Of a stretch of 64,000 bases of DNA, positions 14,699-60,469 are shown one piece after another. The position numbers and the translations under genes were made by a program. Each line of letters starts with the position of its first letter. Position 1 is the first letter of the stretch. A model generated the notes under the pieces. The model made no database searches. It was not told the origin of the DNA and saw only the letters and a list, made by a program, of their open reading frames with translations. This stretch comes from Alphaproteobacteria bacterium (GTDB lineage: Bacteria > Pseudomonadota > Alphaproteobacteria > Rs-D84), in assembly GCA_017443235.1 (NCBI GenBank), contig JAFSOV010000014.1:1867-65866 (forward strand), in the 5' to 3' direction.

Positions 14699-14836
14699 CT
14701 CTGATAAAAATGTTAGCAAATTTTGTAAATCCGGGGCAAGCATATTTTTACATATTTACACAACAGATTTTTCATTGTTTTGGTATTTTCCCCTTGCAAA
14801 ATGTATGAATTTGATTTATTATTGGCGTTGCCTTGT

Positions 14837-18879: not shown

Positions 18880-18882
18880 AGT

Positions 18883-20589: not shown

Positions 20590-20614
20590 TCCCCCTGTCC
20601 TTTCACAAGACTTA

Positions 20615-21094: not shown

Positions 21095-21170
21095 TATTTC
21101 CCCCTTGCGTTTCGAATCGGTTTTATGATACACTTATCATATCATATAAAGTGAATAAGGTTTATAGAAA

Positions 21171-33884: not shown

Positions 33885-34259
33885 ATGAAAACATATAAAT
33901 TTAATTTTTCGGTTGCCTATGCCGACACCGATGCGGGTGGAATAATGTATCATGGGCGTTATATCGAGGTTGCCGAACGTGCGCGGATGAATATGATGCG
34001 TGGAATATCCGTGCCGGACACTGATTTGGGATTTGTGGTTAAAAAATTAGACATAAAATATATGTCACCGTTAAAATTGGCGGACGATTTTATGGTGGAA
34101 ACGACAATAACCGCGGTTGGCGCGGTTTCTATGGATTTAGAACAAAAGTTCGTGCATGGTGATGCAATTTGTGCTATAATGCACATAACTGTGGCGTATA
34201 TTGGCGCAGATATGAAATTAAAAAGTATCCCCGGCGATATTACATCACGGTTGAATTAA
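33885..34259 (+). CDS. ybgC: YbgC-type acyl-CoA thioesterase (hotdog fold)
   Basis: VAYADTDAGGIMYHGRYIEVAERAR motif, 124 aa. Sits in the ruvB-ybgC-tolQ position. Confidence 0.8.
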   Translation: MKTYKFNFSVAYADTDAGGIMYHGRYIEVAERARMNMMRGISVPDTDLGFVVKKLDIKYMSPLKLADDFMVETTITAVGAVSMDLEQKFVHGDAICAIMHITVAYIGADMKLKSIPGDITSRLN

Positions 34260-34289
34260 ATGTTTTTAATTTTAAGGTAAGGAATAAAA

Positions 34290-34730
34290 ATGAATGCGTT
34301 TTCTTTGTGGAGATTGTTCACAAGCGATGTCGTTACGGCGGTTGCATCTATTACTTTGGTGGTATTTAGTGTTATGTCGTGGGCGGTGATTATTGAAAAA
34401 ATTCGACTTTTTCATGGGGTGCGCCATAAAAAGATAAGCGGAAATCCCGATGAAGCGATTCGTCCATTCGATAAAAATCTTTGGTTTTTGGCGATGTGCG
34501 CATATGTTTCGCCATTTATTGGATTGTTTGGAACGGTTTGGGGGGTTATGGATTCTTTTGCGTCCATTGGCGCAAACCAATCGGTCAGCATCGGCGTAAT
34601 TGCGCCGGGTTTGGCGATTGCATTGGGAACAACGGCGTTGGGGTTGGTTGTGGCAATACCTGCGGCAATCGCGCACCAGGTTTTTTCCAAACGTGCCGAT
34701 GATTTATATGAAAAAATTGGGGGAAAATAA
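34290..34730 (+). CDS. tolQ: MotA/TolQ/ExbB-family proton channel subunit, unusually short (146 aa)
   Basis: Three TM segments. Conserved TM2-TM3 region: PFIGLFGTVWGVMDSF and LAIALGTTALGLVVAIPAAIAH. The cytoplasmic loop is only about 35 aa. Confidence 0.8.
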   Translation: MNAFSLWRLFTSDVVTAVASITLVVFSVMSWAVIIEKIRLFHGVRHKKISGNPDEAIRPFDKNLWFLAMCAYVSPFIGLFGTVWGVMDSFASIGANQSVSIGVIAPGLAIALGTTALGLVVAIPAAIAHQVFSKRADDLYEKIGGK

Positions 34731-34731
34731 A

Positions 34732-35133
34732 ATGTCACGGACACGCCGCAGGATTACGGATGCCAGCCTTTCGCTTACGCCAATGATTGATGTTATGACG
34801 GTGTTGTTGGCGGTGTTTATGGTGACGACACCGATGATGACCAATGGTATAGATTTGGATTTGCCGAATGCCGGAACAACGGTTTTGACCGGTACAGACC
34901 ACGCAATGCAAATCAGTGTCGATTCGGCCGGGCGTTATTATATTGGTACGACCCAATTGCCGCTGGATGATGTGATTAAACGCGCGGTGGCGATGCGGGG
35001 TGAAAATTCTAACCTGGCCATTGTGATAAATGGTGACCGGCGCGCGGATTATGGTGCGGTTATGGCGGTTATGGGAAAATTAAAGACCGCGGGTTTTGAA
35101 CGTGTGGGGTTGCGGACAAAATTGGATAAATAA
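34732..35133 (+). CDS. tolR: ExbD/TolR-family protein
   Basis: LTPMIDVMTVLLAVFMV TM motif and a C-terminal ExbD fold region. Start at MSRTRRR, 1 nt after the tolQ stop. Confidence 0.85.
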   Translation: MSRTRRRITDASLSLTPMIDVMTVLLAVFMVTTPMMTNGIDLDLPNAGTTVLTGTDHAMQISVDSAGRYYIGTTQLPLDDVIKRAVAMRGENSNLAIVINGDRRADYGAVMAVMGKLKTAGFERVGLRTKLDK

Positions 35134-35135
35134 AA

Positions 35136-35888
35136 ATGGGCAAATTTAACCATTTTTTGGCGGAAAATTTTGGGTTTTCAATATTGGGGCACTTGGTTGT
35201 TTTGGGTGTCATTGTTTTGATGGCGGACGTTGTCTTTGACCGGTTTGAACGTTTTATTGCCCCCGACAGAATTCAAATAACAATGATAGATTTGAACAGT
35301 GTGCGCGTCACCGGGGATGAAACGGTGCTGTATAATACAAATGTGAACGAAGTTGATAAAACCAGGCCGCAGGACGCGGAAAATAAAAAACAACCGGAAC
35401 AAAATGCCGCGCAAAATCAAAGCGAAGAAATAAAATCTACGACGTTGGTTGCGGACGAAGAAAAAAGTAAAAAGGATACCGCAAAGCCGGATGAAAAAAA
35501 TCCAGATGAAGTTTCTGCGCCGAAAACCAAGACGGTTGTGCGGGTGAATCGAAATGTTGTGTCATTGGACCGGACACTGACTGTGTCGGTTGTTGATGCG
35601 TTGCGTGTGGCGATGACGCGTTGTTGGAACATTGATACGTCGCGACCGGGATTGGATGGAATACGTGCGGTTGCGCATTTGACAATGCGGCAAAATGGAA
35701 CGGTGGCCGATGTTTGGTTCGAATCGGCGGCGCGTGCCGATACCGATTCGGCATTTGCATATGTTTTGGAAACCATACGCAGTGCGATAAATGTTTGCCA
35801 ACCATTACGAATGTTGCCGGCAAATGAATATGATAAATGGCAAAAGATTCAATTGACATTCTATCCCACAACCGGGGCGGTGATGTAG
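35136..35888 (+). CDS. tolA: TolA-like envelope protein
   Basis: N-terminal TM segment, a charged Lys/Glu-rich linker and a C-terminal domain of about 100 aa. It occupies the tolA position after tolQR. The assignment rests on position and architecture only. Confidence 0.55.
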   Translation: MGKFNHFLAENFGFSILGHLVVLGVIVLMADVVFDRFERFIAPDRIQITMIDLNSVRVTGDETVLYNTNVNEVDKTRPQDAENKKQPEQNAAQNQSEEIKSTTLVADEEKSKKDTAKPDEKNPDEVSAPKTKTVVRVNRNVVSLDRTLTVSVVDALRVAMTRCWNIDTSRPGLDGIRAVAHLTMRQNGTVADVWFESAARADTDSAFAYVLETIRSAINVCQPLRMLPANEYDKWQKIQLTFYPTTGAVM

Positions 35889-35892
35889 GGTA

Positions 35893-35925
35893 TTAGTGGT
35901 TAGTGGATAGTGTTAGTGGTTAGTA
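35893..35925. repeat. Short tandem array of TTAGTGG (locus 3, direct copy)
   Basis: TTAGTGG TTAGTGG ATAGTG TTAGTGG TTAGTAG, starting 5 nt after the tolA-like stop. Confidence 0.65.
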
Positions 35926-35973
35926 GAATCTGGCATAATTTCATAATAACGAACTTATTCCAGGAACCATTAA

Positions 35974-36005
35974 TTAGCCACTGTCCACTTGCAATAACCA
36001 CTAAA
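35974..36005. repeat. Inverted, degenerate copy of the TTAGTGG-type array
   Basis: TTAGCCACTGTCCACTTGCAATAACCACTAA is the reverse complement of a TTAGTGG-like array. It lies about 50 nt from the direct copy and abuts the rnpB terminator. Confidence 0.5.
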
Positions 36006-36027
36006 AACGCCCCCTTGCGGGGACGTA
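36001..36027 (-). terminator. Rho-independent terminator of rnpB
   Basis: The minus strand reads ACGTCCCC-GCAA-GGGGGCG-TTTTT: a GNRA-loop hairpin followed by a T-run. Confidence 0.65.
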
Positions 36028-36029
36028 TT

Positions 36030-36372
36030 GCCGTACCGGTCGAACGATAAGCCGGATTCTGTACCGCCCAAACTCAGTGATGTTCCGGCGCGTTCATCAC
36101 CAAACATTGGGTGGCAAGCATAATTAATCTGCACAATGTGTTACCACAAAGTGTCAAGCCCTCTACCCGCCCCCGATTCGGGACAAATCATTGGGGGCCT
36201 ATTTGAAGTTGCTGCGCACAGAGATTGCCCGTTTCACTCAGGTTAAACCTGCTTCGTCACTGTTGCTCTAATCGTCGGGTTTCCCCGCCCGGTCGTTAAC
36301 CGGTGTGCCGTCCCGCGCAGTCCGGACTTTCCTCCGCCACGATTGTGACGGCTATGCTTTGTTCGACTGTTG
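36030..36372 (-). ncRNA. rnpB: RNase P RNA, bacterial type A (compact, about 340 nt)
   Basis: The minus strand carries the universal GAGGAAAGTCCGGAC (P4 5-prime strand), GGGGAAACCC, AGAGCAACAGTGA and ACAGAATCCGGCTTATCG. P1 pairing is GTCGAAC (5-prime) with GTTCGAC (3-prime). Ends are accurate to about 5 nt. Confidence 0.88.
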
Positions 36373-36440: not shown

Positions 36441-36470
36441 TTGACAGGCAAAATTGATTTTTCCTAAGAT
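36441..36470 (+). promoter_or_regulatory. Candidate sigma-70 promoter for the giant gene
   Basis: TTGACA, an 18-nt spacer, then TAAGAT. RBS AAGGAAGGA lies upstream of the ATG at 36504. Confidence 0.4.
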
Positions 36471-36503
36471 TAGATTACAAGCAAAGGAAGGATTGGAGAT
36501 TTT

Positions 36504-39500
36504 ATGTCTGGTTTTTTGAGGAAAATCTGCGTATTTTTTATGGTTATTGCGGCATGTTTCGCGGGGGTGCGCATTTATGCCGCAAGTACTTCCAGTTATT
36601 ATTACACATTGAACGATGACGGCGCCAAAGTGGCCAGTGTCCCGCATTCGTGGGCAATTGGTTCGGTCACACAGTTATCTTCCCTGCCGTATAAACCGGG
36701 TTATGGTTATGGTGGACATTACACCGCGCGGGGTTGCAGCGGAACCCAGGTTATAGATCATACCGGCTCTGTCCAAGTGTCCTTTAATGCCAATACCACA
36801 TTGTATGCGTGTTGGTATGCATATTATCCGCCATCTATTGTTTTGGATGATGCCGGGGGTTCGGGCGGGTTGTTGTATAATGGTGGTTGCTCTAATGTTG
36901 TGAGGTATATTTATAGCAATAATAACGAAGTGACGGTGACTTTTGCAAATCATGATGATTGGGCACGTGATTATATGGAGGTTGACAAAAGTTCCCCGTA
37001 TACGTGGAGAATTGGATGTTCCAACAATGATGTAGTGACCCAGATGTACAACTTGCCAACGCGTTCGGGGTACGCGTTTGGTGGATATTATACCGAACAA
37101 AATGGTTCGGGTACCCAGATTATCGATTCAAGTGGTAATTTAATTAATGCCGCGACCGTTTATAATACATTAGGCAATGCATCCCCAACAACAATCTATG
37201 CATATTGGACATCGAACAGTCCCACATGGGCGACGGTGACAATAAATGATCAATCTGCGACGACAAATTCCCAATATTCCACATTATATATAAATACGAA
37301 CAACAGTTTGAGCAATTGTGGTGGGTATCGAACGGGCCAATCGTGTACCGCGCTAAATATTACTTCTTTTACCCCACCAACCAAGACGGGATATACATAT
37401 GGCGGACATTACACGCAAACGAATGGTGGCGGATGGCAATGGGCGAATTCCAGTGGTGTGATACAGTACAGTGTGTCGGGAAATCAAACCGTTTACGCCA
37501 AATGGACACCCAAGGTTTATACGGTGACACTGAATCACGGCAGTCCCACAAATTCTCCCGCCCCATCAACGGTATACTTGAAGTATGGAACCGGATGGTA
37601 TTCCAATTCGGGGGCAACCACACCGATTTATGCCATGACGACCGTGCCACAAAAGACGAATTATACATTTGGTGGATATTGGACCGGACAAAATGGAACC
37701 GGAACGCGCGTTATCGATTCGGATGGAAATTTCCTTTATACAACGGCGGCACTGACGGCCCTAACATCAAACGCCACAATTTATGCGTATTGGACGGCGG
37801 CTACGCAAAATCCGACATGGATAACCGTCACATTTGATGATAACAGTCCCACAAATTATTCACAATATAATGGTGGGCGTTTGCGATATTTATATCGAAA
37901 TACGAATTCCGCGATTTCGAACTGCAGTGGATATAAATTATCACAATCGTGCAATGCAACAACCGTCACGCATTTTACACCACCTACAAAGGGCGGTTAT
38001 ACGTATGGTGGACATTATACTGGTTCGACCCAGTGGTCGGATGCAAGCGGAAATATTTTGGTGAACCTTAGTGCAAACACAACGGTGACCGCACAATGGA
38101 CGCAAAATTCCGGCACTATTTACACCGTGACATTATATCCAAATGGTGGAACGGGTTCAAATTTGTTGATATATGAAAGGCAGAATATAGGTTGGTATCG
38201 TGATAGCGGTGGAACATATCAAATTACATCATCTATATTTAATTCAACTTCTTCTGGCGGTGCGGGTTTGACCCAACCGACCTATACCAATCATGTGTTT
38301 AACGGTTATTGGACAGGAAAGACGGCCGATGGCGCGACATCATGTTCCGGAACCCAAATGATTGATGCCAATGGTAATATTTTGGCAAGCCCGTCATACG
38401 ATGCCAGTCAGCGTTGGTATGCCTGCTGGGTTGGTCAACAATCAACCGTGACATTGAATGCAAATGGTGGAACGGCGTGCGCGACAACATCGGTGACGGC
38501 GACATATGGCGCACAGATGCCGACACTGTCATGTGCCCCAACCGCGCCAACCGGGCACCATTTTAATGGGTACTTTGATGCCACGTCCGGTGGGACACAA
38601 TATTATTATGCCGACCTAAGTTCTGCACGCAATTGGGACAAGACCGGTGCACAAACGTTGTATGCCCAGTGGGTTGCAAATACTTATATTGTTAAATACT
38701 ATTGTGACAAAGAAGAATATGAATTGGGTACACCGGCCGCCACGGATACTGTGACATATGGTCAAACATATGTTGTTAAAACCCGTGCCCAGGTTGGGTG
38801 TTCTTTGGCAAGTGGTAAAAAATTTATTGGTTGGGATTACGGGGAAGGCAATGCAAATCTATGGCAACCGGGGGATATTATAACATATAATTATACCGAT
38901 GATTTGGATGTTTCGGGATATGTTATGGACATAAATACCGTGACATTAAATCACGGTTCACCCGATAACAGCCCCGCCCCGAATACGGTTTATTATGTTA
39001 CAAGCGACGGTTGGTATTCCGATTCGAACGCAACGATTGAGGCAACTGTGTCGCCGATTCCGGTTAAATATGGATATGATTTTCTGGGATATTGGACTAC
39101 CGCGACATCTGGTGGAACCCAGGTTGTGGATGCTAGTGGGCAATTTATTACGACCACTGTTACTGAGCCAACAACCATATATGCGCGTTATAGTGAAAAA
39201 ACATATCAAATTGCGCTGGATGATCAAAACGCTACAACCGCCGGTGCCCCGACACCGTTGTATTATAGTATTTCAAATGGATGGTCGGCGACCAGTGGTG
39301 GAACAACAATTACACAAATTACAACGGCCCCGACAAAATCTGGATATGTGTTCAATGGATATTGGACACAAACCGGTGGTAATGGAACAAAAATTATAAA
39401 TTCGGACAGAACATTTGCAACAGTGCCATCTGCAATTCTGCAGGCGATGCACGATGGCGAAATTGATATGCTGTATGCGGATTGGTTGACTGTGAATACT

Positions 39501-42500
39501 GTCACATTCTCGTGTCAGAATCAGGCTGGTGATGGTTCGGGAACCCCAAGCCCGGCAACAGTTCAGATACATGATGGCGAAACATTAACATTCCCATCAC
39601 TTTCAAACTGTTCGTGGGGTAATGCGGGATATAGTCCATTTTTGTGGGGTTATGTTGTAAATGGCAGTTTTGTAGAAACTCATGATGCGGGTGACACGAT
39701 AACATGGGATTCTGGTTGGGGAAATCGCACATTTAATGTGTGGTATGCGCCAAATTATTTCAATTATGAATATTCCTGTGGTGCCGGGTCCGGAACGCCG
39801 CCGGCATCCGGAAATACATATTATCATAATGGTGGATGGACAACCGCGGCAAATACATGTACGCTACCGGCGAATAAGCATTTTGTCGGGTGGTTGGAAC
39901 CTGTGTCAAATGAGGTATGGGCGGAAAGCACCACGCCAACAAATGGTTGGCGGTGGCCATACGATGTGACGGCCGCGGCCGGTGGCGCGTTTGTTGCACA
40001 ATATGACGATGATACATATACGGCGACATTTACATGCGAAAATAACGCATTTTCGCCATATGTGTACAGTGGAACCGCGCCAGACGATATAACGGATATC
40101 GCGTATCAGCAGACGATTACCCTGCCATCGCCATCTGTGTGTACAAATAATTATCCGGACGCGGGTTGGATTGCTTCGCCGGCACAGGAATGGAATTATT
40201 ACTGTGTTGATGCCAATAATGGGGCTGCCTTGGGTGGTGGCTCCGCCGGTGCAGGATCTTGGACATGGCCAAAACAAGGTAATTGCACATTCCAGGCATC
40301 CGGTGGACGCAGTATATATCATATTTATTATTATTGCGATGATACAACAAGTACGGTTTCATTGGATCAAACCGTTGATTATTCAAATCGTGATACGGTG
40401 CGCCCGGCAACTGTCGCGGTCGCCGGATGCACTGCGCCAACGGGGTATCATTTTACCGGATGGAAGGTTGGTGCGACCAATACAATTTTATCGCCCGGGC
40501 AATATGGTGGCAACAATGCCCTGTGGCCGTATGCCGCACATACGCATCTGCGTGCCCAGTGGGAGGCAGACACATATAACCTGACCTGGGGTTGTGGCGA
40601 TGGAACCGGGACGCCGTCCGGCGCATCGTTCCCGACAAGTATAGATTATGGCGAAACACTGACATTCCCGGCAAATACGGTATGTTCCGCGCCGATGGGG
40701 TATGAATTTGCCGGTTGGACCATTGATGCGAATACGACAACATATCAACCAAACGGGACATTTGTGTGGAACCTGACATCGGGCAGCGAGATAAACGCTT
40801 CGTTCACACCAATAACATATACGATAACATATGACTGTAACGGTGGAACCGGTTCGCCGTCAACGCAAAATGTGACCTATGGTGGTTCGATTCAATTGAT
40901 TTCTACGGACGCGTGTACCCGGGGTGGTTATACGGCGAACGGTTGGGATGTTTCGGGGACATCGCCGGTTGTTAACTATGCATCCGAGGCGGTGGTAAAT
41001 CCGTGGCCATATGCGGCAAACAAAACGCTAAGTGTTAATTGGACCGCCAGAACATATACGATAACGTATTACGATGAAGATGGTACGACCGTATTGACGG
41101 GATTGAACCCGACCAGTTATACATATGGTACGGGTGCAACAATAAATGCGGTTCCAACCAAGGCATATTCGGTGTTTAATGGTTGGTGTACAACACGCAA
41201 TGCGACAACAGGTACGCTTTCTGGGTGCCAACCGACAACAAATCCGCATGTTATTGGAACAACAGAAACCGACAACAAGGCATACTATGCCAGTTGGTCT
41301 TGCGCAACCGGGTACCGAAAATATAACTATGCAGTAGACAGTTTTTTGTATCCATCGGGTGGCGGACAAATTCCGGCGGGTTCGTGCGCCCCGATTCGTT
41401 ATATTATAAATTGCCATGGTAATGGTGGAAACGCATGTTTGGAACAGTTTAACCTGGGGCAATCTGGGACGGTTGGTACATACAGTTTTGGAAGTTCGTA
41501 TAACACCATTGCCATCAATTCCACGGGCAGCGATATAAGCGCAGTACCATTGCCTGTATCTAATAATGGTAATGTGGAACCTGTTTGGCCGTTCTTGTTT
41601 ACCAAAAGTCCGGATGCAAATTATACGGCCTTTACACCGTGGCCCGCCAATGGCCTGGTCAGCAGCAGTGTGCAATCAGGTTATCTTAGTCATAACTATG
41701 TGACATTTATGCAGGCGGTTGCCAACGAATCGTATAACAACGGTATAGATTTTGGTCGTCCGCATTATACATTTGACGGTTTGTGGACCGCGGCAGATGG
41801 TGGAAACAAATATATTGGTGCCGATGGTTTGTCGCCAACCGGTGGATATGCGTTTGATAGTCAAGAAATGGCAAATTTCTTTACGGCGGATGCGGATGTC
41901 TATGCGCATTGGGTGCCGGATCGTTATACAATAATGTTAGAGGCCGAAGGGTATGATGGGACATTGCCTGCGATTTATGAAACATATAACACCGGATGGG
42001 CCCAGACATCGACAGAAACACCGGGCGATTGGGTGCCGTTGACCGCGGAACAAATGGCACATCGGGCAGGATATACATTCTTGGGATATTATTCGTCTGC
42101 TTCGGGCTCGAATGCCACCAAATACATCAATGCCGATGGAACATTGGCCAATGGTGTGACGGCAACGACATTTGGCCAAAGCACGTCCATATTTGCTCGA
42201 TTCGAAGCAAACACATACAATGTGACATATGATTGCAATGCGGATGGTGCGACCGATTATACGGATACGGCGACATATGATTCTACATATACGGTATTAA
42301 GGTTGAGTGAAGCGGGATGCTCGGTCATAATTGGACATACATTTGGTGGTTGGGCGATATCCGGGACAAACCTGATTAAGAGTGGTGGCGATACGTTCAC
42401 ATGGAACTATACAGAACCCAAGACTTTAACCGCCCAATGGACGCCGAATGTTTACCATATTACATTTGATTTCAATAATAATTATACCGGTGGTGGCGCC

Positions 42501-45500
42501 CAGGTCGGTACGGCAAATATGTATGAAAAATATGGCGTTGGTTGGGGCGTGAACGAAAGTGGCGGTACCGGTTCGACATCGGGTGAATTATGGAGTGACA
42601 CCGTAATTACATTACCGCGTTATGCAGGACACACCTTTGTTGGTTATTATGATAACACTGCGGGAACCGGCACGCAATATGTTGGCCCAGATGCGCAATT
42701 GCCATCCAACAGGACCTTTGTAATGGATAAAATATTGTATGCGGTGTGGAGTGATTGTACACCGGGAAATTATTGCGATGATGGCCAGGTTATATCGTGC
42801 AGCACCGCGACAAATGGTAAATACCCGTACAGTGACGCCGGGGCAAGCAGTATAAACGATTGCTATTTAACATTAACGACCGGGAAACGTGTCGCGACCG
42901 CCGGCGCGGGTATGACCAATTGTGCCGCGAACAGTTTCAGTGACGACACAACAACGAACGTTTATTATGGTGGCACGGCATCCGCATCGCACCCCACAAC
43001 CAGTTCTTGTCCGGCCTGCTCTACACTGGGTGGTGGATTGTACGCAACCAGTGCCGGCGGCACAGGTTCAACCGGATGCTATATAACGACAACGGCGGGA
43101 AAATATGTTGTTGCAAATACTGATACCGCCCAGACAACATGCCCGGTCAAGAAATACTGTGAATCTGCAACATTGTATTGGCCGAGTGTTGGGCAAATTG
43201 CGGATTGTCCAACCCCAGACGCGTCAACAATGCGCACAACATATCCAGATAATTATTATAATGTATCAGATATATCAATTTCATGGGGGTCGGCCACTGG
43301 TGCAACATCTATATCAAAATGTAGGGCAATTTATTTTGTGACAAACGAGCGTGGTAAATTCTATCATACGCAAATAGAGTATAATCCTGTTACAGGAAAA
43401 TATGATTCTGGCAACGGGGTACAGAAATATTACACAGTTTTGAATCCGGGATATTATGGTACGGAAAAATTGTATTCGGCTTCGTATTGCAATTCTTCGT
43501 CCACGACAAGCCTTATGTATTATAAAGATGCGCAACCGTGTCCGACGGGCAGTTATTGCCCGGGCCTGACCAGTATGCCATTGTGTTCATCGGGAACATA
43601 TGAAACGACAATTGGTCTGTATTCTTGTCCGGTTGCATATCCCGACAGTGCCGCAATGTCAACCAGTATCGATGCGTGCTATTTAACCACAACGGCGGGG
43701 AACTATGTCGCAACGGCGGGTGCGGGTGAAACGCAATGCGCCGCAAACAGTTTCTGTACCGGTGGCACGGTCGTGTATTATAACGGTACCGGCGGTATCA
43801 CCGCATGTTCAACCGGCGCCGCCAGCAGTTACAGCACCAGCGCCGCCGGCAGTGACGCCGCCACAGATTGCTATAAAACCGTCACATTAAACAAAAATGG
43901 TGGTTCGGGAACGATTCAGGGAACAAGTGGAACCGACCCGGCATCCGTCACATGTTATTATAACACATCTTGCCCGTTTGGCAGTGCCGGCGGATTGCAA
44001 CAAACCGGATATACATTCACCGGCGGTTGGGGTACGTCCGCATCGTGCAGTGATACAACAACGTCCTATACCGTGCCAAACGGAACAAATACGTACTATG
44101 CATGTAAATCCCAGAAAGATTATACAATGCAATATTTGTGCAGTGATGGCACGGAAAGTGCAAACTGGAGTTTTGCCGGTACGGCACCGGTCGCAACAAA
44201 TCCGGTGCATTATGGCGACAGTGTGACAATGGCCGCCAATCCATATGGTGATCAAACCGGTTGCCGCAAAGTATGGGGAACATCCGGCGATGCAGATTAT
44301 TGTACAGATTGCTTTACGTTCGGCGGTTGGAAGATTCCAGCAGAATTTACGTCACTGGAACAAACTTTGGTACACCTGGGCGGTTCCGATGTAAATACGT
44401 GGGGTAATACAGACAGTACAGATTGGTGTATTATTGACAATACATCTGATGCGTGTACTGGATTCTCGGATGCGGTATTTTATGTTTACCCAATGTATAC
44501 TCCAAAACAATATGATATAGAATATATGTATGCGACCAGTCCGGTAAATAATAATGCGTCTATGCCGGCGGATTATACATATACCGTTGGCACCAGTATC
44601 AGCAACGCGGACCAGACCCCACCCGCACACGCCACATTTAATGGTTGGTGCACGGGCGCGAATGGAACCGGAACATGCTATAATGCCGGTCAATCCATTA
44701 CAATTGGCAATCGCGCCCATGGTGATATAACATATTACGCAAATTGGTCATGTGGTTCGGGATATACTTTGACATACGATACGAATAACCAACCGGTATG
44801 TTCGGCGGATGTGATAACGTGCGATCCGGGTTATTATTTGCAAGGTTCCAGCGCAACATGTCAACCATGCTTGGTTGGTGATTATTGCGAGGGTGGAAAT
44901 TTCGTGCATAATGGAACCGACCAAGGGTTGAAAGTATGTGCGACCGAGATTGCCACAGGTTGGACCAGTTTGGGTGGAACAGATTGCACCGCCAAGACCA
45001 GTTGTTATTATCCGGTGACATTGAACAAAAACGGATTTAGCGGAACCATAGCCGCGGGTGCCGGTACCGGATGCACGGTTGCAGCCAAATCCACGGGTAC
45101 AAATCCGGCAACATTAAGGTTATTCTATAATACCGCATGCACTTTGCCAACATTTACAACGGGTTTGACCCAGACAGGATACACCAATGCGACCACATGG
45201 TCGGAACAAAGCACGTTGAATGCAACGGCGGTTTCAACAATTGATGCCGTGACCACAACGCCCGCGGTGACGACATATTATGCGCGAAAAACTACGTGCA
45301 AGGCTAATTATTATACCCCCGATAATACAACATGTACGGCATGCAGTGGTTTGGCCGGTGGCGCATACCCCAAAAGTGCCGCAGGAACGGGTGACGCAAC
45401 CAGTTGCTATGCATCAATAACATTGAACAAAAATGGATACAGCGGAACCATATCGGCAAATGCGGGCACGGGATGTAAGGTTGCATCAAGGGCTATCGGC

Positions 45501-46385
45501 ACAACAAATGCAACGTTAAAATTATTCTATAATACCGCATGCACTTTGCCAACATTTACAACGGGTTTGACCCAGACAGGATACACCAATGCCACAAAAT
45601 GGTCCGAGTTTAATACCATAGACGCAACAACGGTCAGTACGATTCCGGCATCAACGACGGCACCCACGATAACCACGTATTATGCTCAAAAACCAAGTTG
45701 TGCTGCGAATTATTATAAAAACGATACAACAACCTGCAGTTTATGCAGCGGTTTGGGTGGCGGTTTGTACACCAAAAGTGCCGCCGGTAACAAGACCGAT
45801 AATACGGTATGTTATTCGACTGTGACCGCGGGGACATACATTGTCAATAATACAGATTCGGCCGTGACAGAATGCCCAGGTGGTTCGTATTGTATTGGTG
45901 GTAATGTGTATTGGCCGAATGTGGGTAATATTGATTCTTGCCCGGATGGTTATGATTTGGGTGACGCCGGTTTAAGTGCTCAAAATCAGTGCCAGACCAG
46001 TTGCCCGGCGGGTCAGTGTTTGCCGGTGGCGGGTGGTTCGTGTGTGGATGCGGGCGTTGGTAATTGGTCGGCCGGGGGACTTGTTGGGTATGGTTCCACA
46101 TTGGCGTGCAATGTGTGCCCGACGGGACTGACCACCATTGGGTATGGTGCCGGTGCGGACGAAGCCGACGATTGTGGACGTGTTTTGCATATGGGTGAAA
46201 ACCGGTTGTACCTGCGCGGAGCGTTCCGGACAACGCCGTCTTTGCGGGTAAAGGTCGGTGATAACGTATTCTATGGCAATATGTCAACCACATTAAAGAA
46301 TATGTCCGATGGTATAAACAAAAAATTAAGATTAAAATATAATGGTACAACATATTCGGTATATGATGACAGTGTCGGTGAATAG
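36504..46385 (+). CDS. Giant secreted surface protein (3,293 aa): InlB B-repeat / Listeria-Bacteroides repeat array plus a Cys-rich C-terminal region
   Basis: One uninterrupted ORF with signal peptide MSGFLRKICVFFMVIAACFAGVRIYA. At least 22 by-eye copies of the repeat core G-Y-x-F-x-G-[WY] ending in YA-x-W. From about aa 2080 there are CPxGxYC-type Cys modules. Confidence 0.9.
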   Translation: MSGFLRKICVFFMVIAACFAGVRIYAASTSSYYYTLNDDGAKVASVPHSWAIGSVTQLSSLPYKPGYGYGGHYTARGCSGTQVIDHTGSVQVSFNANTTLYACWYAYYPPSIVLDDAGGSGGLLYNGGCSNVVRYIYSNNNEVTVTFANHDDWARDYMEVDKSSPYTWRIGCSNNDVVTQMYNLPTRSGYAFGGYYTEQNGSGTQIIDSSGNLINAATVYNTLGNASPTTIYAYWTSNSPTWATVTINDQSATTNSQYSTLYINTNNSLSNCGGYRTGQSCTALNITSFTPPTKTGYTYGGHYTQTNGGGWQWANSSGVIQYSVSGNQTVYAKWTPKVYTVTLNHGSPTNSPAPSTVYLKYGTGWYSNSGATTPIYAMTTVPQKTNYTFGGYWTGQNGTGTRVIDSDGNFLYTTAALTALTSNATIYAYWTAATQNPTWITVTFDDNSPTNYSQYNGGRLRYLYRNTNSAISNCSGYKLSQSCNATTVTHFTPPTKGGYTYGGHYTGSTQWSDASGNILVNLSANTTVTAQWTQNSGTIYTVTLYPNGGTGSNLLIYERQNIGWYRDSGGTYQITSSIFNSTSSGGAGLTQPTYTNHVFNGYWTGKTADGATSCSGTQMIDANGNILASPSYDASQRWYACWVGQQSTVTLNANGGTACATTSVTATYGAQMPTLSCAPTAPTGHHFNGYFDATSGGTQYYYADLSSARNWDKTGAQTLYAQWVANTYIVKYYCDKEEYELGTPAATDTVTYGQTYVVKTRAQVGCSLASGKKFIGWDYGEGNANLWQPGDIITYNYTDDLDVSGYVMDINTVTLNHGSPDNSPAPNTVYYVTSDGWYSDSNATIEATVSPIPVKYGYDFLGYWTTATSGGTQVVDASGQFITTTVTEPTTIYARYSEKTYQIALDDQNATTAGAPTPLYYSISNGWSATSGGTTITQITTAPTKSGYVFNGYWTQTGGNGTKIINSDRTFATVPSAILQAMHDGEIDMLYADWLTVNTVTFSCQNQAGDGSGTPSPATVQIHDGETLTFPSLSNCSWGNAGYSPFLWGYVVNGSFVETHDAGDTITWDSGWGNRTFNVWYAPNYFNYEYSCGAGSGTPPASGNTYYHNGGWTTAANTCTLPANKHFVGWLEPVSNEVWAESTTPTNGWRWPYDVTAAAGGAFVAQYDDDTYTATFTCENNAFSPYVYSGTAPDDITDIAYQQTITLPSPSVCTNNYPDAGWIASPAQEWNYYCVDANNGAALGGGSAGAGSWTWPKQGNCTFQASGGRSIYHIYYYCDDTTSTVSLDQTVDYSNRDTVRPATVAVAGCTAPTGYHFTGWKVGATNTILSPGQYGGNNALWPYAAHTHLRAQWEADTYNLTWGCGDGTGTPSGASFPTSIDYGETLTFPANTVCSAPMGYEFAGWTIDANTTTYQPNGTFVWNLTSGSEINASFTPITYTITYDCNGGTGSPSTQNVTYGGSIQLISTDACTRGGYTANGWDVSGTSPVVNYASEAVVNPWPYAANKTLSVNWTARTYTITYYDEDGTTVLTGLNPTSYTYGTGATINAVPTKAYSVFNGWCTTRNATTGTLSGCQPTTNPHVIGTTETDNKAYYASWSCATGYRKYNYAVDSFLYPSGGGQIPAGSCAPIRYIINCHGNGGNACLEQFNLGQSGTVGTYSFGSSYNTIAINSTGSDISAVPLPVSNNGNVEPVWPFLFTKSPDANYTAFTPWPANGLVSSSVQSGYLSHNYVTFMQAVANESYNNGIDFGRPHYTFDGLWTAADGGNKYIGADGLSPTGGYAFDSQEMANFFTADADVYAHWVPDRYTIMLEAEGYDGTLPAIYETYNTGWAQTSTETPGDWVPLTAEQMAHRAGYTFLGYYSSASGSNATKYINADGTLANGVTATTFGQSTSIFARFEANTYNVTYDCNADGATDYTDTATYDSTYTVLRLSEAGCSVIIGHTFGGWAISGTNLIKSGGDTFTWNYTEPKTLTAQWTPNVYHITFDFNNNYTGGGAQVGTANMYEKYGVGWGVNESGGTGSTSGELWSDTVITLPRYAGHTFVGYYDNTAGTGTQYVGPDAQLPSNRTFVMDKILYAVWSDCTPGNYCDDGQVISCSTATNGKYPYSDAGASSINDCYLTLTTGKRVATAGAGMTNCAANSFSDDTTTNVYYGGTASASHPTTSSCPACSTLGGGLYATSAGGTGSTGCYITTTAGKYVVANTDTAQTTCPVKKYCESATLYWPSVGQIADCPTPDASTMRTTYPDNYYNVSDISISWGSATGATSISKCRAIYFVTNERGKFYHTQIEYNPVTGKYDSGNGVQKYYTVLNPGYYGTEKLYSASYCNSSSTTSLMYYKDAQPCPTGSYCPGLTSMPLCSSGTYETTIGLYSCPVAYPDSAAMSTSIDACYLTTTAGNYVATAGAGETQCAANSFCTGGTVVYYNGTGGITACSTGAASSYSTSAAGSDAATDCYKTVTLNKNGGSGTIQGTSGTDPASVTCYYNTSCPFGSAGGLQQTGYTFTGGWGTSASCSDTTTSYTVPNGTNTYYACKSQKDYTMQYLCSDGTESANWSFAGTAPVATNPVHYGDSVTMAANPYGDQTGCRKVWGTSGDADYCTDCFTFGGWKIPAEFTSLEQTLVHLGGSDVNTWGNTDSTDWCIIDNTSDACTGFSDAVFYVYPMYTPKQYDIEYMYATSPVNNNASMPADYTYTVGTSISNADQTPPAHATFNGWCTGANGTGTCYNAGQSITIGNRAHGDITYYANWSCGSGYTLTYDTNNQPVCSADVITCDPGYYLQGSSATCQPCLVGDYCEGGNFVHNGTDQGLKVCATEIATGWTSLGGTDCTAKTSCYYPVTLNKNGFSGTIAAGAGTGCTVAAKSTGTNPATLRLFYNTACTLPTFTTGLTQTGYTNATTWSEQSTLNATAVSTIDAVTTTPAVTTYYARKTTCKANYYTPDNTTCTACSGLAGGAYPKSAAGTGDATSCYASITLNKNGYSGTISANAGTGCKVASRAIGTTNATLKLFYNTACTLPTFTTGLTQTGYTNATKWSEFNTIDATTVSTIPASTTAPTITTYYAQKPSCAANYYKNDTTTCSLCSGLGGGLYTKSAAGNKTDNTVCYSTVTAGTYIVNNTDSAVTECPGGSYCIGGNVYWPNVGNIDSCPDGYDLGDAGLSAQNQCQTSCPAGQCLPVAGGSCVDAGVGNWSAGGLVGYGSTLACNVCPTGLTTIGYGAGADEADDCGRVLHMGENRLYLRGAFRTTPSLRVKVGDNVFYGNMSTTLKNMSDGINKKLRLKYNGTTYSVYDDSVGE
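45003..45806 (+). repeat. In-frame tandem duplication (2 x 402 nt) inside the giant gene
   Basis: The units start at 45003 (CYYPVTLNKNGFSGT) and 45405 (CYASITLNKNGYSGT). A stretch of about 70 nt is identical between 45119..45190 and 45521..45592. Confidence 0.85.
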
Positions 46386-46399
46386 CAAAGGGATAAAAT

Positions 46400-47077
46400 A
46401 TGAACAAAAACCAGAAAATATTTATACTTGCGGCGTTGATGGGTTTGGCGGGTGCATGTAAAAAAGACCCGATTCCGGAACCGAATCCGGCCCCAACACC
46501 GAATGTGCCGACCGACACCATTGTGCCACCAACGCCCGGTGATACAATCACACCCGTGGTGCCCGGCGATACAATTGTTCCAAATCCACCAACGCCGGGT
46601 GATACGATACAGCCTGGAAATTATGATACTATTCCTGGGCGTAAGGTAGAATTTTTGTTAGTGAAACCAGGCAATTCTGGGATACGTTATCCGACCAGAG
46701 ATACTATATTGTTTTATGCCAATCATCCAGGTTGTGATAGTATAGTACTTAAATGGAAAGTTGGCGCTGGTTATACAACAGGTTGGACACCGGATGCCTT
46801 TCATTCGCCACGCGACAGTTTGAGGAAGCGCTTTATAAGCCCAAAAGTTTTTGGAAAAGGCAGAATTAACGTTAATCAAAATTATGGTGGCGCCAGTATA
46901 CCATGTGCGGATTCGTTAGATATATCTAAATTAGGAATGACCGTGTGTGATAGCGCGATTTTTGCAGATTGGGGGTATGAACCTTATCGTGATCCATATT
47001 CGAAATCACGCGAAGAGCATATTAAGTTTATTGACACGGTTGGAATGTCGCGTGCAATATTGGGTCGAACCCGGTAA
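46400..47077 (+). CDS. Putative lipoprotein with a Pro-rich PGDTI-repeat linker, function unknown
   Basis: 225 aa with a signal peptide and lipobox-like LAGAC. PGDTI occurs three times in a Pro-rich linker, followed by a globular C-terminal domain. Starts 15 nt after the giant gene's stop. Confidence 0.75.
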   Translation: MNKNQKIFILAALMGLAGACKKDPIPEPNPAPTPNVPTDTIVPPTPGDTITPVVPGDTIVPNPPTPGDTIQPGNYDTIPGRKVEFLLVKPGNSGIRYPTRDTILFYANHPGCDSIVLKWKVGAGYTTGWTPDAFHSPRDSLRKRFISPKVFGKGRINVNQNYGGASIPCADSLDISKLGMTVCDSAIFADWGYEPYRDPYSKSREEHIKFIDTVGMSRAILGRTR

Positions 47078-47100: not shown

Positions 47101-47132
47101 AAAAGCCGGCACAATGATTGTGTCGGTTTTTA
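47101..47132 (+). terminator. Rho-independent terminator after the giant-gene/lipoprotein pair
   Basis: Stem CCGGCACA / TGTGTCGG with one G:U pair, followed by TTTTT. Confidence 0.55.
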
Positions 47133-47160
47133 AAATAATTGCGTTGTGTCAATGGATTAT

Positions 47161-47376
47161 TTATTGTTTTTCACCCATTTTCTTGGTGGATTTTAATGCG
47201 GTGCGTAATGATTCCAATGCGACTTCGTATATGCGGGCGGAAAATGTTCGCATATTCATTGTGTCGGCAAAATTCTTGCTGAACACATCGGCCAGATATT
47301 CCAACTGGGCGGGTGATATTACGAAAACTTCGCTGGTTATATTTGTTGGTTGTAATTGTTTTATTTGATCTTTCAT
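47161..47376 (-). CDS. Small hypothetical protein (71 aa)
   Basis: The ORF has a plausible helical composition and lies divergent from secA. No motif recognised. A competing plus-strand ORF (47114..47368) looks compositionally poor. Confidence 0.4.
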   Translation of the reverse strand: MKDQIKQLQPTNITSEVFVISPAQLEYLADVFSKNFADTMNMRTFSARIYEVALESLRTALKSTKKMGEKQ

Positions 47377-47534: not shown

Positions 47535-50144
47535 ATGGTTATGAATATTATTCAAAAAATATTGGGTTCGGCGAACGACCGATTGGTTAAATCTTATGAT
47601 AAAACCGTATCAATGATAAATGATTTGGAACCCAAATATCACGCAATGAGTGATGAAGAATTACGCGCGCAAACGGATGTTCTGCGGGCGCGTATTGCGG
47701 CGGGCGAAAAAGAAAAAAATATTTTGCCCGATGCGTTTGCCGCCGTGCGCGAGGCATCTATTAGAACCATCGGCCTGCGGCACTTTGATGTTCAAATGAT
47801 TGGGGGTATGGTTTTGAACAACGGTCAAATTGCAGAAATGAAGACCGGCGAAGGTAAAACATTGGTTGCAACTTTGGCTTTGTACCTTAAGGCACTGTAT
47901 GGCAAAGGCGCGCATTTGATTACTGTGAACGATTATTTGGCATCGCGTGACGCAAAATGGATGGGGCAAGTTTATGAATTTTTGGGTCTGTCGGTTGGGA
48001 TTATTCAGCATGATATGACCGATGACGAACGCCGCGCGGCATATGCGTGTGATATTACGTATGTGACGAATTCCGAACTGGGGTTTGATTATTTGCGTGA
48101 CAATATGAAGTTTTCAAAATCGCAACAGGTGTTGCGTCCCCTGTTCTTTGGTATTGTTGACGAAGTGGACAGTATTTTGATTGACGAAGCGCGCACGCCA
48201 CTTATTATCTCTGGCCCGTCCGAGGATATTAGTGAATTGTATAACAAGGTCGATGCGGTGGTGGCAAAACTGGCCCCGGATGATTATAAAAAGGATGAAA
48301 AAGACCGCCACGTCACTTTGACCGAGGGCGGTGTGGATTCTGTGACGCGATTGTTGCGCGACGCGGGTTTATTGGTTGGCGATAATCTGTATGCCCCCGA
48401 AAATGCCGCGTTGGTTATGCATATTCAACAATCTTTGTTGGCGCATCATTTGTTCCAGAAAAATGTGAACTATGTTGTGCGTGATGGCGAGGTTTTAATT
48501 GTCGATGAATTTACCGGGCGCGTAATGACGGGGCGGCGATTCGGGCGCGGTCTGCACCAGGCGATTGAGGCCAAAGAACATGTCACGGTTCAACCGGAAA
48601 ATCAAACCGTGTCCAGTATTTCTTACCAGAATTTATTCCGTTTGTATGAAACTTTGGCCGGTATGACCGGAACCGCCATGACCGAAGCCGCCGAATTCGA
48701 TGAAATTTATAAACTGCGCGTGGTTTCAATTCCAACCAATCGCCCCGTTGCGCGTGTGGATCATCATGATGAAATTTACCTTAATAAAAATGAAAAATAT
48801 GATGCGATTGTCAATCAAATTGCCGATTGTATGAAACGGAATCAGCCGGTCCTGGTTGGCACGGTTTCAATTGAAAAATCCGAAGAATTGGCCGATGTGG
48901 TTCGCAAACGCTTGGGCGTGAATCCGGCGGTATTAAATGCAAAACACCATCAATCTGAGGCGAAAATCGTTGCCCAGGCGGGCGCGCCGGGCGCGATTAC
49001 CATTGCAACAAATATGGCGGGACGTGGAACCGATATTAAACTTGGTGGAAATGCCGAGGATTTAATTGCAGACCTGGACAAAGATGCACCGGATTACGAG
49101 GCCAAGAAGAAAGAGATATACGACACAATCGAAAAAAATAAAAAGATTGTTTTGGATGCCGGTGGTTTGTATGTGATTGGGACCGAACGCCATGAATCGC
49201 GGCGCATAGATAATCAGTTGCGCGGCCGCAGCGGACGTCAAGGTGACCCGGGCGATTCAAAATTCTTTTTGGCGTTGGATGATGATTTGATGCGTATATT
49301 TGGTGCGGCGCGTTTGTCGGGAATGCTGACTACACTGGGGTTAAAACCGGGCGAAGCGATTACACATCCATGGATTACCAAGGCATTAGAGAAAGCGCAA
49401 AAACGCGTTGAAGCCCGTTATTTCGAGGCGCGTAAAGAACTGTTAAAATATGATGACGTTATGAATGAACAACGTGGCGTTGTCTATAAACAGCGCGACG
49501 ATTTAATGACATCGAATGATTTGACACCTTTGGCACGCGAGATGATTGCGGACGTTGTTGAAATAATCTGCGAGAATAATATTCCGGAACGGGCCCAGCC
49601 CGCAGATTGGAATATCAAAGGCATTCATGACGCAATGGTTCGTGTTTTTGCATTGGATATTACCGATTTGGAAAATTGGAAAAAAGACGAAACGCTTACC
49701 GACCGCAAGGCGTATGATACTTTGTTGGGATTGGCGATGCAGCGGTATCAAAATCAAGCCGACAAATATGGACCCGATATGATGCAGACCGCATCACGAC
49801 AAATGATGTTGGGTGCATTGGATTCTGTGTGGAAACAACACCTGCAACAGATGGATTATTTGCAGACCGGTATCGGTTTGCGCGGATATGCACAAAAGAA
49901 TCCATTGTATGAGTACAAGCGTGAAGCATTGGGTTTATTCAAAAACACTATCAACAATTTCAAGATTATGTCGGTGGCGTATATTTCCCGTATGGAATTG
50001 ACGCGTGCGGATGTTGATGCAACCGAAAAGCAACGCAATGAACATGACCAATCCTTGAATGCCGCCGGCGAGGCCCGACGCAATGCGCCATGTCCGTGTG
50101 GTTCGGGATTAAAATATAAACATTGCTGTGGCAAATTAAAATAA
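47535..50144 (+). CDS. secA: Preprotein translocase ATPase SecA
   Basis: Walker A MKTGEGKTL, DEAD-like VDEVDSILIDEARTPLIISG, and the C-terminal zinc-binding CPCGSGLKYKHCCG. Confidence 0.96.
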   Translation: MVMNIIQKILGSANDRLVKSYDKTVSMINDLEPKYHAMSDEELRAQTDVLRARIAAGEKEKNILPDAFAAVREASIRTIGLRHFDVQMIGGMVLNNGQIAEMKTGEGKTLVATLALYLKALYGKGAHLITVNDYLASRDAKWMGQVYEFLGLSVGIIQHDMTDDERRAAYACDITYVTNSELGFDYLRDNMKFSKSQQVLRPLFFGIVDEVDSILIDEARTPLIISGPSEDISELYNKVDAVVAKLAPDDYKKDEKDRHVTLTEGGVDSVTRLLRDAGLLVGDNLYAPENAALVMHIQQSLLAHHLFQKNVNYVVRDGEVLIVDEFTGRVMTGRRFGRGLHQAIEAKEHVTVQPENQTVSSISYQNLFRLYETLAGMTGTAMTEAAEFDEIYKLRVVSIPTNRPVARVDHHDEIYLNKNEKYDAIVNQIADCMKRNQPVLVGTVSIEKSEELADVVRKRLGVNPAVLNAKHHQSEAKIVAQAGAPGAITIATNMAGRGTDIKLGGNAEDLIADLDKDAPDYEAKKKEIYDTIEKNKKIVLDAGGLYVIGTERHESRRIDNQLRGRSGRQGDPGDSKFFLALDDDLMRIFGAARLSGMLTTLGLKPGEAITHPWITKALEKAQKRVEARYFEARKELLKYDDVMNEQRGVVYKQRDDLMTSNDLTPLAREMIADVVEIICENNIPERAQPADWNIKGIHDAMVRVFALDITDLENWKKDETLTDRKAYDTLLGLAMQRYQNQADKYGPDMMQTASRQMMLGALDSVWKQHLQQMDYLQTGIGLRGYAQKNPLYEYKREALGLFKNTINNFKIMSVAYISRMELTRADVDATEKQRNEHDQSLNAAGEARRNAPCPCGSGLKYKHCCGKLK

Positions 50145-54547: not shown

Positions 54548-55039
54548 ATGAAAAAACTGTTAGTTGGTTTAATGGGGATGTTTGCGGCGGGAAAATCTTT
54601 CGCAAACCCGGCCTGTGCGGTGTGCACGATTGCCATTGGTGCAACATTATCTATATCCAGAAAACTTGGGGTTTGTGATAATGCGGTTGCAATTTGGGTT
54701 GGCGCATTTTTGGTTTTGATGGGTTATTGGCTTATCAAATGGTTTGATAGGAAAAATTGGCATTTCTGGGGTCGCGATATCATTTTAATATTATTGTCTT
54801 TTTCAATGATTGCGGGGCTGTATATCAAGCATTTAACATATAATCAGTGTTATTGGATAATTGATGCGTTTTTGTTCTGGGCCATGGTTGGTGGGGCGAT
54901 TTATATTCTGTCGCAAAAGTTATATGAATTTATGAAACGTCGCAACAATAATCATGCACATTTTCCATTCGAGAAGGTTGTCTTGGCCTTGGTTATGTTA
55001 TTTATTGCCAGTTTTATTGTTGCCAAATTGGCCGCATAA
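54548..55039 (+). CDS. Small polytopic membrane protein, function unknown
   Basis: 163 aa with about 4 hydrophobic spans and an N-terminal CAVC motif. Confidence 0.6.
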   Translation: MKKLLVGLMGMFAAGKSFANPACAVCTIAIGATLSISRKLGVCDNAVAIWVGAFLVLMGYWLIKWFDRKNWHFWGRDIILILLSFSMIAGLYIKHLTYNQCYWIIDAFLFWAMVGGAIYILSQKLYEFMKRRNNNHAHFPFEKVVLALVMLFIASFIVAKLAA

Positions 55040-55057
55040 GTTAAAAGGAGAAAACAA

Positions 55058-55633: not shown

Positions 55634-55691
55634 AAAAACAGGTTGATTCAAATTTGGAATTTTTACTATAATCGCAATCGAAGGGAGTGAA

Positions 55692-58067: not shown

Positions 58068-58101
58068 GAAAATGAATAAAACGAGCAAAAAAGGAAGGTA
58101 A

Positions 58102-59118: not shown

Positions 59119-59162
59119 AAACAAATAAACAAACAATAATTTAGGAACAAAAGGAAGCAAAA

Positions 59163-60434: not shown

Positions 60435-60469
60435 GGAAAGGATTGTGAAATAAATAAAAAGGAAGTCAA

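Follow-up and report, generated by a model that had tools for sequence, protein, structure and literature searches.

What is a 3,293-amino-acid (aa) exported repeat protein doing in the housekeeping neighbourhood of a small-genome gut bacterium? The question is raised by an open reading frame (ORF) at 36504..46385 on the plus strand of the stretch analysed here, 64,000 nucleotides (nt) of contig JAFSOV010000014.1 (assembly GCA_017443235.1, Alphaproteobacteria bacterium), which we refer to as the window. A first interpretation made from the letters alone, the sequence-only reading, had described a giant secreted protein composed of InlB B-repeat-like units fused to a eukaryote-like Cys-rich region, and had proposed it as a lineage-defining adhesin or fibre. 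Our analysis places the protein in a family that carries a 95-aa C-terminal domain and finds it in a genomic slot that is conserved across the lineage. We consider it somewhat probable that the protein is a Sec-exported, extracellular, disulfide-stabilised fibre that has been diversified by recombination. A role as a contact or adhesion fibre appears to be the best reading, held with modest confidence, with a variable coat coming second.

The ORF is real and intact. It contains no internal stop, it is the sole long ORF over its span, and its GC content (0.46-0.48) equals that of the remainder of the window. The identical 3,293-aa protein was called on 15 independent contigs from different metagenome samples and assemblies, and direct DNA repeats within the gene do not exceed 78% identity, so that an assembly artefact, a repeat collapse or a pseudogene is unlikely. 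The suspicion that a long and repetitive gene taken from a metagenome-assembled genome (MAG) might be an assembly chimera or a decaying pseudogene is effectively refuted by these observations and deserves next to no credence, the same slot also holding full-length orthologues in relatives. A plausible promoter and ribosome-binding site precede the gene, as had been proposed (Table 1).

The feature that defines the family is the C-terminal domain, which starts with CP.GLTTIGYG.GADEA.DCGR and continues into six beta strands ending in YSVYDDS (consensus ..CP.GLTTIGYG.GADEAGDCGR.LH.G...LYLRS..KT.PSLNVK.G...YGNMS....K.LK...TTYSVYDDS). It is present in 31 of the 120 best homologues listed, always as a single copy. 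The alignment of this domain (A1) yielded a profile that recognises the window ORF at E 1.5e-43. In a search of 1.84 billion cluster representatives it matched 699 proteins at E<=1e-3, with 512 remaining at E<=1e-10, the longest having 6,644 aa; the domain forms a single stretch at or near the C-terminus in nearly all of the 150 matches listed. Its AlphaFold model (predicted local distance difference test, pLDDT, 84; predicted template-modelling score, pTM, 0.74) folds the six strands into three hairpins. The second characteristic element is a lineage-specific beta-rich core module, found in 102 of 335 family sequences in one to seven copies each and recognised in the window ORF at E 1.7e-51, for which the model is of similar quality (pLDDT 85, pTM 0.78). 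Neither domain has a match in Pfam, NCBIfam or PHROGs. Foldseek searches of both models against the PDB returned nothing better than E 0.7 for the C-terminal domain and E 1.5 for the core, with template-modelling (TM) scores below 0.25 and no fold neighbour for either domain. Among viral models, the C-terminal domain drew three uncharacterised gut-phage proteins (E 7.6e-3 to 0.65, TM 0.42-0.47), weak matches below significance that may serve only as a lead.

Short complete members of 441-905 aa reveal the minimal architecture of the family, which consists of a signal peptide, a Cys-rich N-terminus (often AAGYTCPTYKKYTSC), spacers, a module of about 160 aa, further spacers and the C-terminal domain. 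The window protein has the single C-terminal domain, the core module and the signal type of the family, and it shares the position between rnpB and secA with the slot orthologues. When the family profiles were run against the window ORFs, no second member was found. Some members continue past the C-terminal domain (P0008, P0010, P0019, P0021, P0038, P0045, P0012, P0024, P0131 and others), and their extensions fall into a 130-aa module of the form '...CWCQITSP...CANNMKG...YRTNLY', a 180-225-aa module of the form '...GYT.LEYIQSSG.QYI.TG...VPV.RNSD...G.YD.V...F', and a 109-aa module that matches phage tail proteins in their C-terminal part. Relatives of a further, separate kind have no C-terminal domain and end in '...CMYQGQKY...CNPGYKMW'. 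A description of this family was not found in the literature on Enterousia, Rs-D84 and giant Flg_new proteins. The giant repeat protein as such was already known, being annotated in NCBI as "InlB B-repeat-containing protein" (MBQ6736476.1); what is new is the pair of undescribed domains, both confidently modelled and without structural neighbours, together with the conserved slot and mosaic hypervariability in a small-genome gut lineage.

The repeats themselves are what they had been taken for. Over the whole protein, both relevant hidden Markov models (HMMs) score above their cutoffs with tandem copies, Pfam Flg_new PF09479 with 62.4 bits against a cutoff of 27 in eight stretches and TIGR02543 with 25 bits against 20.95. 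A repeat profile built iteratively from the protein's own units, whose E-values are circular and usable only as a map, placed 20 units in aa 30-2088 and five more in the C-terminal third, of which three are clear (aa 2458-2539, 2540-2587 and 2674-2754) and two are weak (aa 2845-2942 and 2972-3066), giving about 23-26 Flg_new-like units in all. The earlier count of at least 22 cores is thus right for the whole protein and too high for the part before aa 2080. Similarly, the C-terminal third is indeed enriched in Cys as claimed, and the switch to Cys-rich modules is incomplete in that Flg_new-like units are interleaved with them. The segment of aa 2458-2754 alone reaches 23 bits with Pfam Flg_new, and two degenerate 'VTLNKNG.SGTI' units further on constitute a 300-nt duplication at 73% identity. 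Counted along the protein, there are 38 Cys in aa 1-2082 (1.8%), 65 in aa 2083-3228 (5.7%) and none in the last 65 aa, in agreement with the Cys-free end that had been noted; Thr makes up 14.8% of the composition and Gly 11.3%.

The proposed eukaryote-like fusion found no support. The Cys-rich part (aa 2081-3215) has no Pfam match even at E<10, the Pfam scan of the whole protein gave only Flg_new, a PDB sequence search with aa 2081-3293 returned nothing, and the Cys-rich segments, the core, the C-terminal domain and the downstream ORFs gave nothing significant against Pfam, NCBIfam or PHROGs. Two relatives narrowly pass Pfam cutoffs (Ephrin_rec_like 25.8 against 23.1; TNFR_ELAPOR1_6th 34.7 against 33.2), and PF07699 is precomputed for three homologues (P0018, P0053 and P0116); the Cys-rich spacers are therefore presumably of the general TNFR or ephrin-receptor Cys-rich type. 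The window protein itself stays below the PF07699 and PF23091 cutoffs and shows five pattern matches to the C-x2-C-P-x-G...C spacing. Nothing in the Pfam and PDB searches or in the family comparison suggests a eukaryotic origin or a fusion event for this part. Because the C-terminal third is shared by family members down to 441 aa, the family comparison indicates that the C-terminal approximately 1,200 aa is the ancestral bacterial body of the family, to which the Flg_new array is a clade-specific addition placed before it.

The protein's export is indicated by its N-terminus, MSGFLRKICVFFMVIAACFAGVRIYA followed by AS, which is the only hydrophobic segment of the whole protein and which confirms the Sec-type signal peptide of a giant secreted product. 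A signal of the MSRxLRF type ending in AxA is conserved across the family, the AxA site being universal. The window protein also contains a lipobox-like IAAC at aa 15-18, retained as V[IV]AAC in its clade; the pattern occurs in 11 of the 121 distinct family N-termini, all in or near this clade. In all 11 an AxA site follows, which favours signal peptidase I over lipidation, and we infer cleavage of the giant protein after Ala26. Anchoring through the IAAC lipobox as a property of the family was rejected, the pattern being clade-specific.

The position of the gene is as constant as its content is variable. It is flanked by ruvB, ybgC, tolQ, tolR, a tolA-like gene, rnpB, secA and dnaE, and with its GC content this accords with the housekeeping neighbourhood that had been described. 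The tol cluster (33885..36370) runs ybgC-tolQ-tolR-tolA-like and then breaks off, the place expected for tolB-pal being taken by rnpB on the minus strand and by the giant gene. Clustering of the neighbours over about 78 related loci placed secA downstream of the C-terminal-domain gene 38 times (median distance 647 bp). A 71-aa ORF on the opposite strand recurs in 37 of the loci and dnaE in 29, and in every case in which the start of the gene could be reached, a tolA-like gene precedes it. Because these genes recur around the family gene, the slot tolQRA-rnpB-X-secA-dnaE is conserved across the lineage, holding proteins that range from 441 to 3,293 aa. Other family members lie in other housekeeping contexts.

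Within this stable frame, the protein diverges as a mosaic. It is 47% identical end to end to its syntenic orthologue (P0002, locus L004), compared with 97.9% aa identity for SecA and about 90% nt identity for the flanks. An identity profile in 100-aa blocks against eight orthologues shows blocks of 90-100% identity alternating with blocks of 5-40%, the best partner differing by block: P0002 at aa 301-500, 901-1100 and 2001-2100, P0004 at aa 501-700 and P0003 at aa 3001-3293. Relative to a more distant locus (L086, which carries P0003), the flanks are 83% identical at the nt level, mid-gene 67% and the 3' end (45399..46583) 91.6%. Since the 3' end is more similar than the flanks and identity changes block by block, the mosaic reads as probable exchange of segments by recombination. 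Judged from these comparisons, the giant protein changes far faster than the neighbouring genes, as would be expected of a cell-contact or coat protein.

The distribution of the family points to one kind of host. A GTDB scan with one genome per species and the C-terminal-domain alignment confirmed 156 loci, several per genome, of which 80 were retrieved; all except one come from MAGs of gut or rumen origin that bear the label Alphaproteobacteria, Candidatus Enterousia or "uncultured Rickettsiales". The lone exception (L043, CAVGNU010000030.1) is a 3-kb contig in a bin labelled Bacteroides fragilis and is most likely a binning contaminant, not a true occurrence outside Alphaproteobacteria. With at least 699 representatives and 79 of 80 GTDB loci of this type, the label "lineage-defining" is justified for the C-terminal domain. 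The window encodes the alphaproteobacterial regulator GcrA as well as lpxA and lpxB, from which it follows that lipid A is made and that the outer membrane bears lipopolysaccharide. Its SecA shares 97.9% identity with the SecA of a water-buffalo rumen MAG (L006), 91.5% with the one in a Ca. Enterousia sp. MAG (L007) and at least 80% with all 38 SecA slot neighbours. The host is a Ca. Enterousia-like, uncultured, small-genome gut or rumen alphaproteobacterium of order Rs-D84. Ca. Enterousia belongs to this GTDB order and has genomes of 0.75-1.0 Mb; Rs-D84/Ca. Enterousia, uncultured and with genomes below 1 Mb, is widespread in human, ruminant, horse and poultry guts, and Rs-D84 genomes lack the tricarboxylic acid cycle, respiration, parts of glycolysis and standard transporters, for which a partner-dependent lifestyle has been proposed (PMC12306168). 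A 9.9-kb gene in a genome below 1 Mb thus amounts to about 1% of the genome.

In the arrangement that we infer from sequence, SecA/SecYEG would carry the protein across the inner membrane, signal peptidase I would cleave after IYA, and the Cys-rich modules would oxidise and fold outside the cytoplasm. The mature protein would stand on or beyond the outer membrane, anchored by one end, as a contact or adhesion fibre or a coat of a partner-dependent bacterium. Such a fibre would comprise, in order, the signal peptide, about 20 Flg_new beads, Cys-rich spacers, the core, a few Flg_new-like units and the 95-aa C-terminal beta-hairpin domain, the last being the module that every family member would need, and the remainder would be diversified through segment exchange between strains or paralogues. 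The contact or adhesion fibre is preferred in view of the partner dependence proposed for Rs-D84, and because the gene has kept its slot and its product changes rapidly as a mosaic. For the C-terminal domain, we weakly favour a cell-proximal attachment or sorting module over a distal head because it is uniform, single-copy and the most conserved part of the protein.

Several observations weigh against this picture. The giant protein has no LPXTG motif, C-terminal transmembrane segment, autotransporter barrel, type IX secretion system (T9SS) domain or RTX repeats by which it might be anchored. Among the window ORFs scanned there are no genes for a type I (T1SS) or type V (T5SS) secretion system or a sortase, as had been noted for the adjacent genes, and no T9SS genes were seen in the window; over the approximately 78 loci, no conserved accessory or secretion gene stands beside family members, only the housekeeping genes secA, dnaE, RNase H and transketolase, so that these neighbours offer no route across the outer membrane. 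The picture also assumes that disulfides form in an anaerobe that lacks a respiratory chain. The lowest identity falls in aa 2101-2500 and 2801-3200, and such variability right next to the C-terminal domain would be odd for a cell-proximal end. Finally, about one fifth of the C-terminal-domain proteins found carry 110-225 extra residues after the domain, and one class of these extensions resembles phage tail proteins in their C-terminal parts (phrog_18629, E 3.9e-7); this speaks against a sorting signal that must be strictly terminal, and a distal head would fit.

In the alternative of opposite polarity, the conserved C-terminal body (core module and C-terminal domain) would be a distal ligand-binding head on a Flg_new stalk and attachment would be N-terminal, through lipidation at Cys18 in the lipobox-like IAAC or through a conserved mature N-terminal motif. 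We regard this as unlikely yet well worth keeping in mind. It would account for a length that varies from 441 to 3,293 aa around a constant C-terminal body, for the modules added after the C-terminal domain in some members, including the class that resembles phage tail C-terminal parts, and for a variability that peaks in the C-terminal third, and it can draw on the V[IV]AAC conserved in the window's clade and on the weak Foldseek matches to gut-phage proteins. Each proposed means of attachment meets a difficulty: the lipobox-like pattern occurs in just 11 of 121 N-termini and is always followed by AxA, and comparison of family N-termini shows that AGYTCPTYKKYTSC, a mature N-terminal motif common in the family, is missing in the window's clade. 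The gut-phage matches, in turn, lie below significance.

Somewhat less likely still is the bolder proposal that the C-terminal domain would be the tag of an undescribed attachment or export route and the core a device for recognising partner or host, the window protein then being the largest known allele of a system spread across order Rs-D84, in which a small-genome, partner-dependent alphaproteobacterium would maintain several recombining, mosaic Cys-rich surface proteins.

It is rather improbable that the protein is no adhesin at all but a released exoprotein or a self-assembling protective coat, comparable to an S-layer or to the variant surface proteins (VSPs) of Giardia, whose Cys-rich, Thr- and Gly-rich modules would confer resistance to gut proteases and whose variation would serve evasion of immunity or phages. 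The missing anchor motif, the Thr and Gly content with the Cys-rich C-terminal third, and the several paralogues per genome with their mosaic variation are all compatible with this. There is no indication of lattice formation, however, the sevenfold spread in length of the slot proteins is hard to square with a regular coat, and the Cys content of 5.7% is about half of that generally known for Giardia VSPs.

A delivery system resembling polymorphic toxins, with the C-terminal domain as the boundary before a variable effector and small downstream ORFs as immunity genes, has very little to recommend it and was rejected since the giant protein has no effector domain: some members do carry variable 110-225-aa extensions and a small clade-specific ORF lies 15 nt downstream, but the window protein and most relatives end a few residues past the domain, the extensions are Cys-rich or lectin-like and not enzyme-like with no toxin Pfam matches, the downstream ORF encodes an exported lipoprotein and not a cytoplasmic immunity protein, and neither the window ORFs scanned nor the approximately 78 loci show a Rhs, CdiA or type VI secretion context.

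The features on which this account draws are collected in Table 1, together with the elements that border the slot.

Table 1. Features of the giant gene and its slot, with positions in the window, strand and basis of assignment
Feature	Position	Strand	Basis
rnpB (class A RNase P RNA), upstream slot border	36032..36370	-	Rfam RF00010, 188 bits
Promoter-like site TTGACA, 18-nt spacer, TAAGAT	36441..36470	+	Consensus scan, 10/12 matches; pattern match only
Shine-Dalgarno-like AAGGAAGGATTGGAG	36484..36498	+	Read from sequence; 5 nt between its end and ATG
Signal peptide, aa 1-26 (MSGFLRK, hydrophobic core, IYA before AS)	36504..36581	+	Hydrophobicity, family conservation
Flg_new (Listeria-Bacteroides / InlB B-repeat) array, about 20 units, aa 30-2088	36591..42767	+	PF09479, TIGR02543, own-unit profile
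Non-repeat insert in array, aa 1605-1738	41316..41717	+	Gap in repeat map; no Pfam match, no family
Cys-rich spacer modules (C-x2-C...G.Y...SAAG...C type), aa 2083-2214	42750..43145	+	Cys positions and pattern
Lineage-specific beta-rich core module, about 160 aa, aa 2215-2375	43146..43628	+	Family profile, AlphaFold model
Cys-rich spacer, aa 2376-2457	43629..43874	+	Cys map
Three more Flg_new-like units, aa 2458-2754	43875..44765	+	Own-unit profile, E 2e-11, 2e-5, 2e-15 (circular, map only)
Cys-rich modules interleaved with two degenerate 'VTLNKNG.SGTI' units, aa 2755-3198	44766..46097	+	Repeat and Cys maps
Family-defining 95-aa C-terminal domain, aa 3199-3293	46098..46382	+	Alignment A1, profile search
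Lipoprotein-like ORF, 225 aa (lipobox LAGAC, Pro-rich PTPGDTI linker)	46400..47077	+	Translation; no Pfam/PHROG family
Conserved 71-aa ORF between slot gene and secA	47161..47376	-	37 related loci; no Pfam/PHROG family
secA, downstream slot border	47535..50144	+	NCBIfam, 1167 bits

Two small ORFs separate the giant gene from secA. The lipoprotein-like ORF starts 15 nt past the stop of the giant gene and occurs in only seven related loci, the closest relatives, being 58% identical in L086 (where SecA is 94% identical). It was rejected as a universal partner on this distribution and is a possible clade-specific one. An overlapping plus-strand ORF at 47114..47368, predicted by one gene caller, is probably not a real gene as against the conserved 71-aa ORF.

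Elsewhere in the window, a prepilin peptidase (Peptidase_A24; 20615..21133, minus strand) is followed by two secreted ORFs of no known kind at 18883..20589 (27 Cys) and 16984..18879, and the locus (16984..21133, minus strand) could be a remnant or a novel version of a type II secretion, Tad or pilus system and hence a possible export route. A six-ORF run without Pfam family (54548..62392, plus strand) includes a secreted Cys-rich protein of 791 aa (55692..58067) and another of 640 aa (60470..62392) that has a signal peptide and stretches rich in Gly of the form GAxGxxG. Two more large secreted proteins are encoded on the minus strand, one of 910 aa that is Cys-rich (30 Cys, no family; 12011..14743) and one of 710 aa with a C-terminal OmpA-like peptidoglycan-binding domain (25188..27320).

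The significance of the giant gene lies in what it may offer a partner-dependent bacterium. A gene that takes about 1% of the genome, keeps the same slot across the lineage and is rapidly reshuffled would be a concrete candidate for the contact apparatus towards the proposed partner. The two undescribed domains provide simple markers for surveys of the family and targets for structural and localisation work, and should the C-terminal domain prove to be a sorting or anchoring tag, it would represent an uncatalogued route of surface display in bacteria with an outer membrane.

Comparison with known systems sets these features in relief. The protein resembles the Flg_new / InlB B-repeat giants in its tandem units of about 70-100 aa, the core P-x-K-x-G-Y-x-F-x-G-W...Y-A-x-W and the HMM scores above cutoff, such repeats being typical of huge secreted proteins of gut bacteria. 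Other listed Flg_new proteins, labelled Eubacteriales, Raoultibacter or Prevotellaceae or bearing an SLH domain (PF00395) or a T9SS tail (PF18962), lack this C-terminal domain, whereas here the array is joined to a lineage-restricted body with two domains outside Pfam and NCBIfam. The Ephrin_rec_like/GCC2_GCC3 (PF07699) and TNFR-like (PF23091) repeats share C-x2-C-P-x-G...T...G-A...C modules with the window protein, which differs in having no Pfam match to them itself and only 5.7% Cys.

Among secretion systems, the closest formal parallel is the T9SS cargo domain of Bacteroidota (Por_Secre_tail PF18962 / TIGR04183), which is likewise all-beta, about 80-95 aa long, present once at the C-terminus and carried by hundreds of otherwise dissimilar giant secreted proteins with Sec signals. 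Neither HMM matches here, however, the host is alphaproteobacterial and the domain is sometimes followed by further modules, and T9SS cargo was rejected on the first two grounds. Type V secretion was set aside as well, with a 95-aa, six-stranded C-terminal domain in place of a barrel of about 250-300 aa and with neither an autotransporter Pfam match nor a neighbouring partner. A type I RTX adhesin of the LapA/MpIBP type is contradicted by the Sec signal, the complete lack of GGxGxD and the absence of nearby ABC or membrane fusion protein genes, and a sortase-anchored LPXTG protein by the lack of that motif or a C-terminal hydrophobic segment and by the outer membrane that lpxA and lpxB indicate.

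Closer in spirit are variable surface proteins. The Giardia VSPs, as generally known, share variable Cys-rich ectodomains, a conserved C-terminus, several paralogues and an anaerobic gut organism with this family; the giant protein differs in having neither a transmembrane segment nor a CRGKA tail. Host-dependent bacteria with small genomes also have variable surface proteins in paralogous families, such as the Sca autotransporters of Rickettsia, the Pmp autotransporters of Chlamydia and Msp2 of Anaplasma. They resemble the present case in that much of a small genome is given over to one family, whose members combine a conserved terminal module with a variable, recombining rest. They differ from it in that the giant protein has no autotransporter beta-barrel or known anchor and that gene conversion is here no more than a possible source of variation. 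By analogy, these families and Cys-rich coats of the Giardia VSP kind may offer the closest functional counterparts to this protein and its family.

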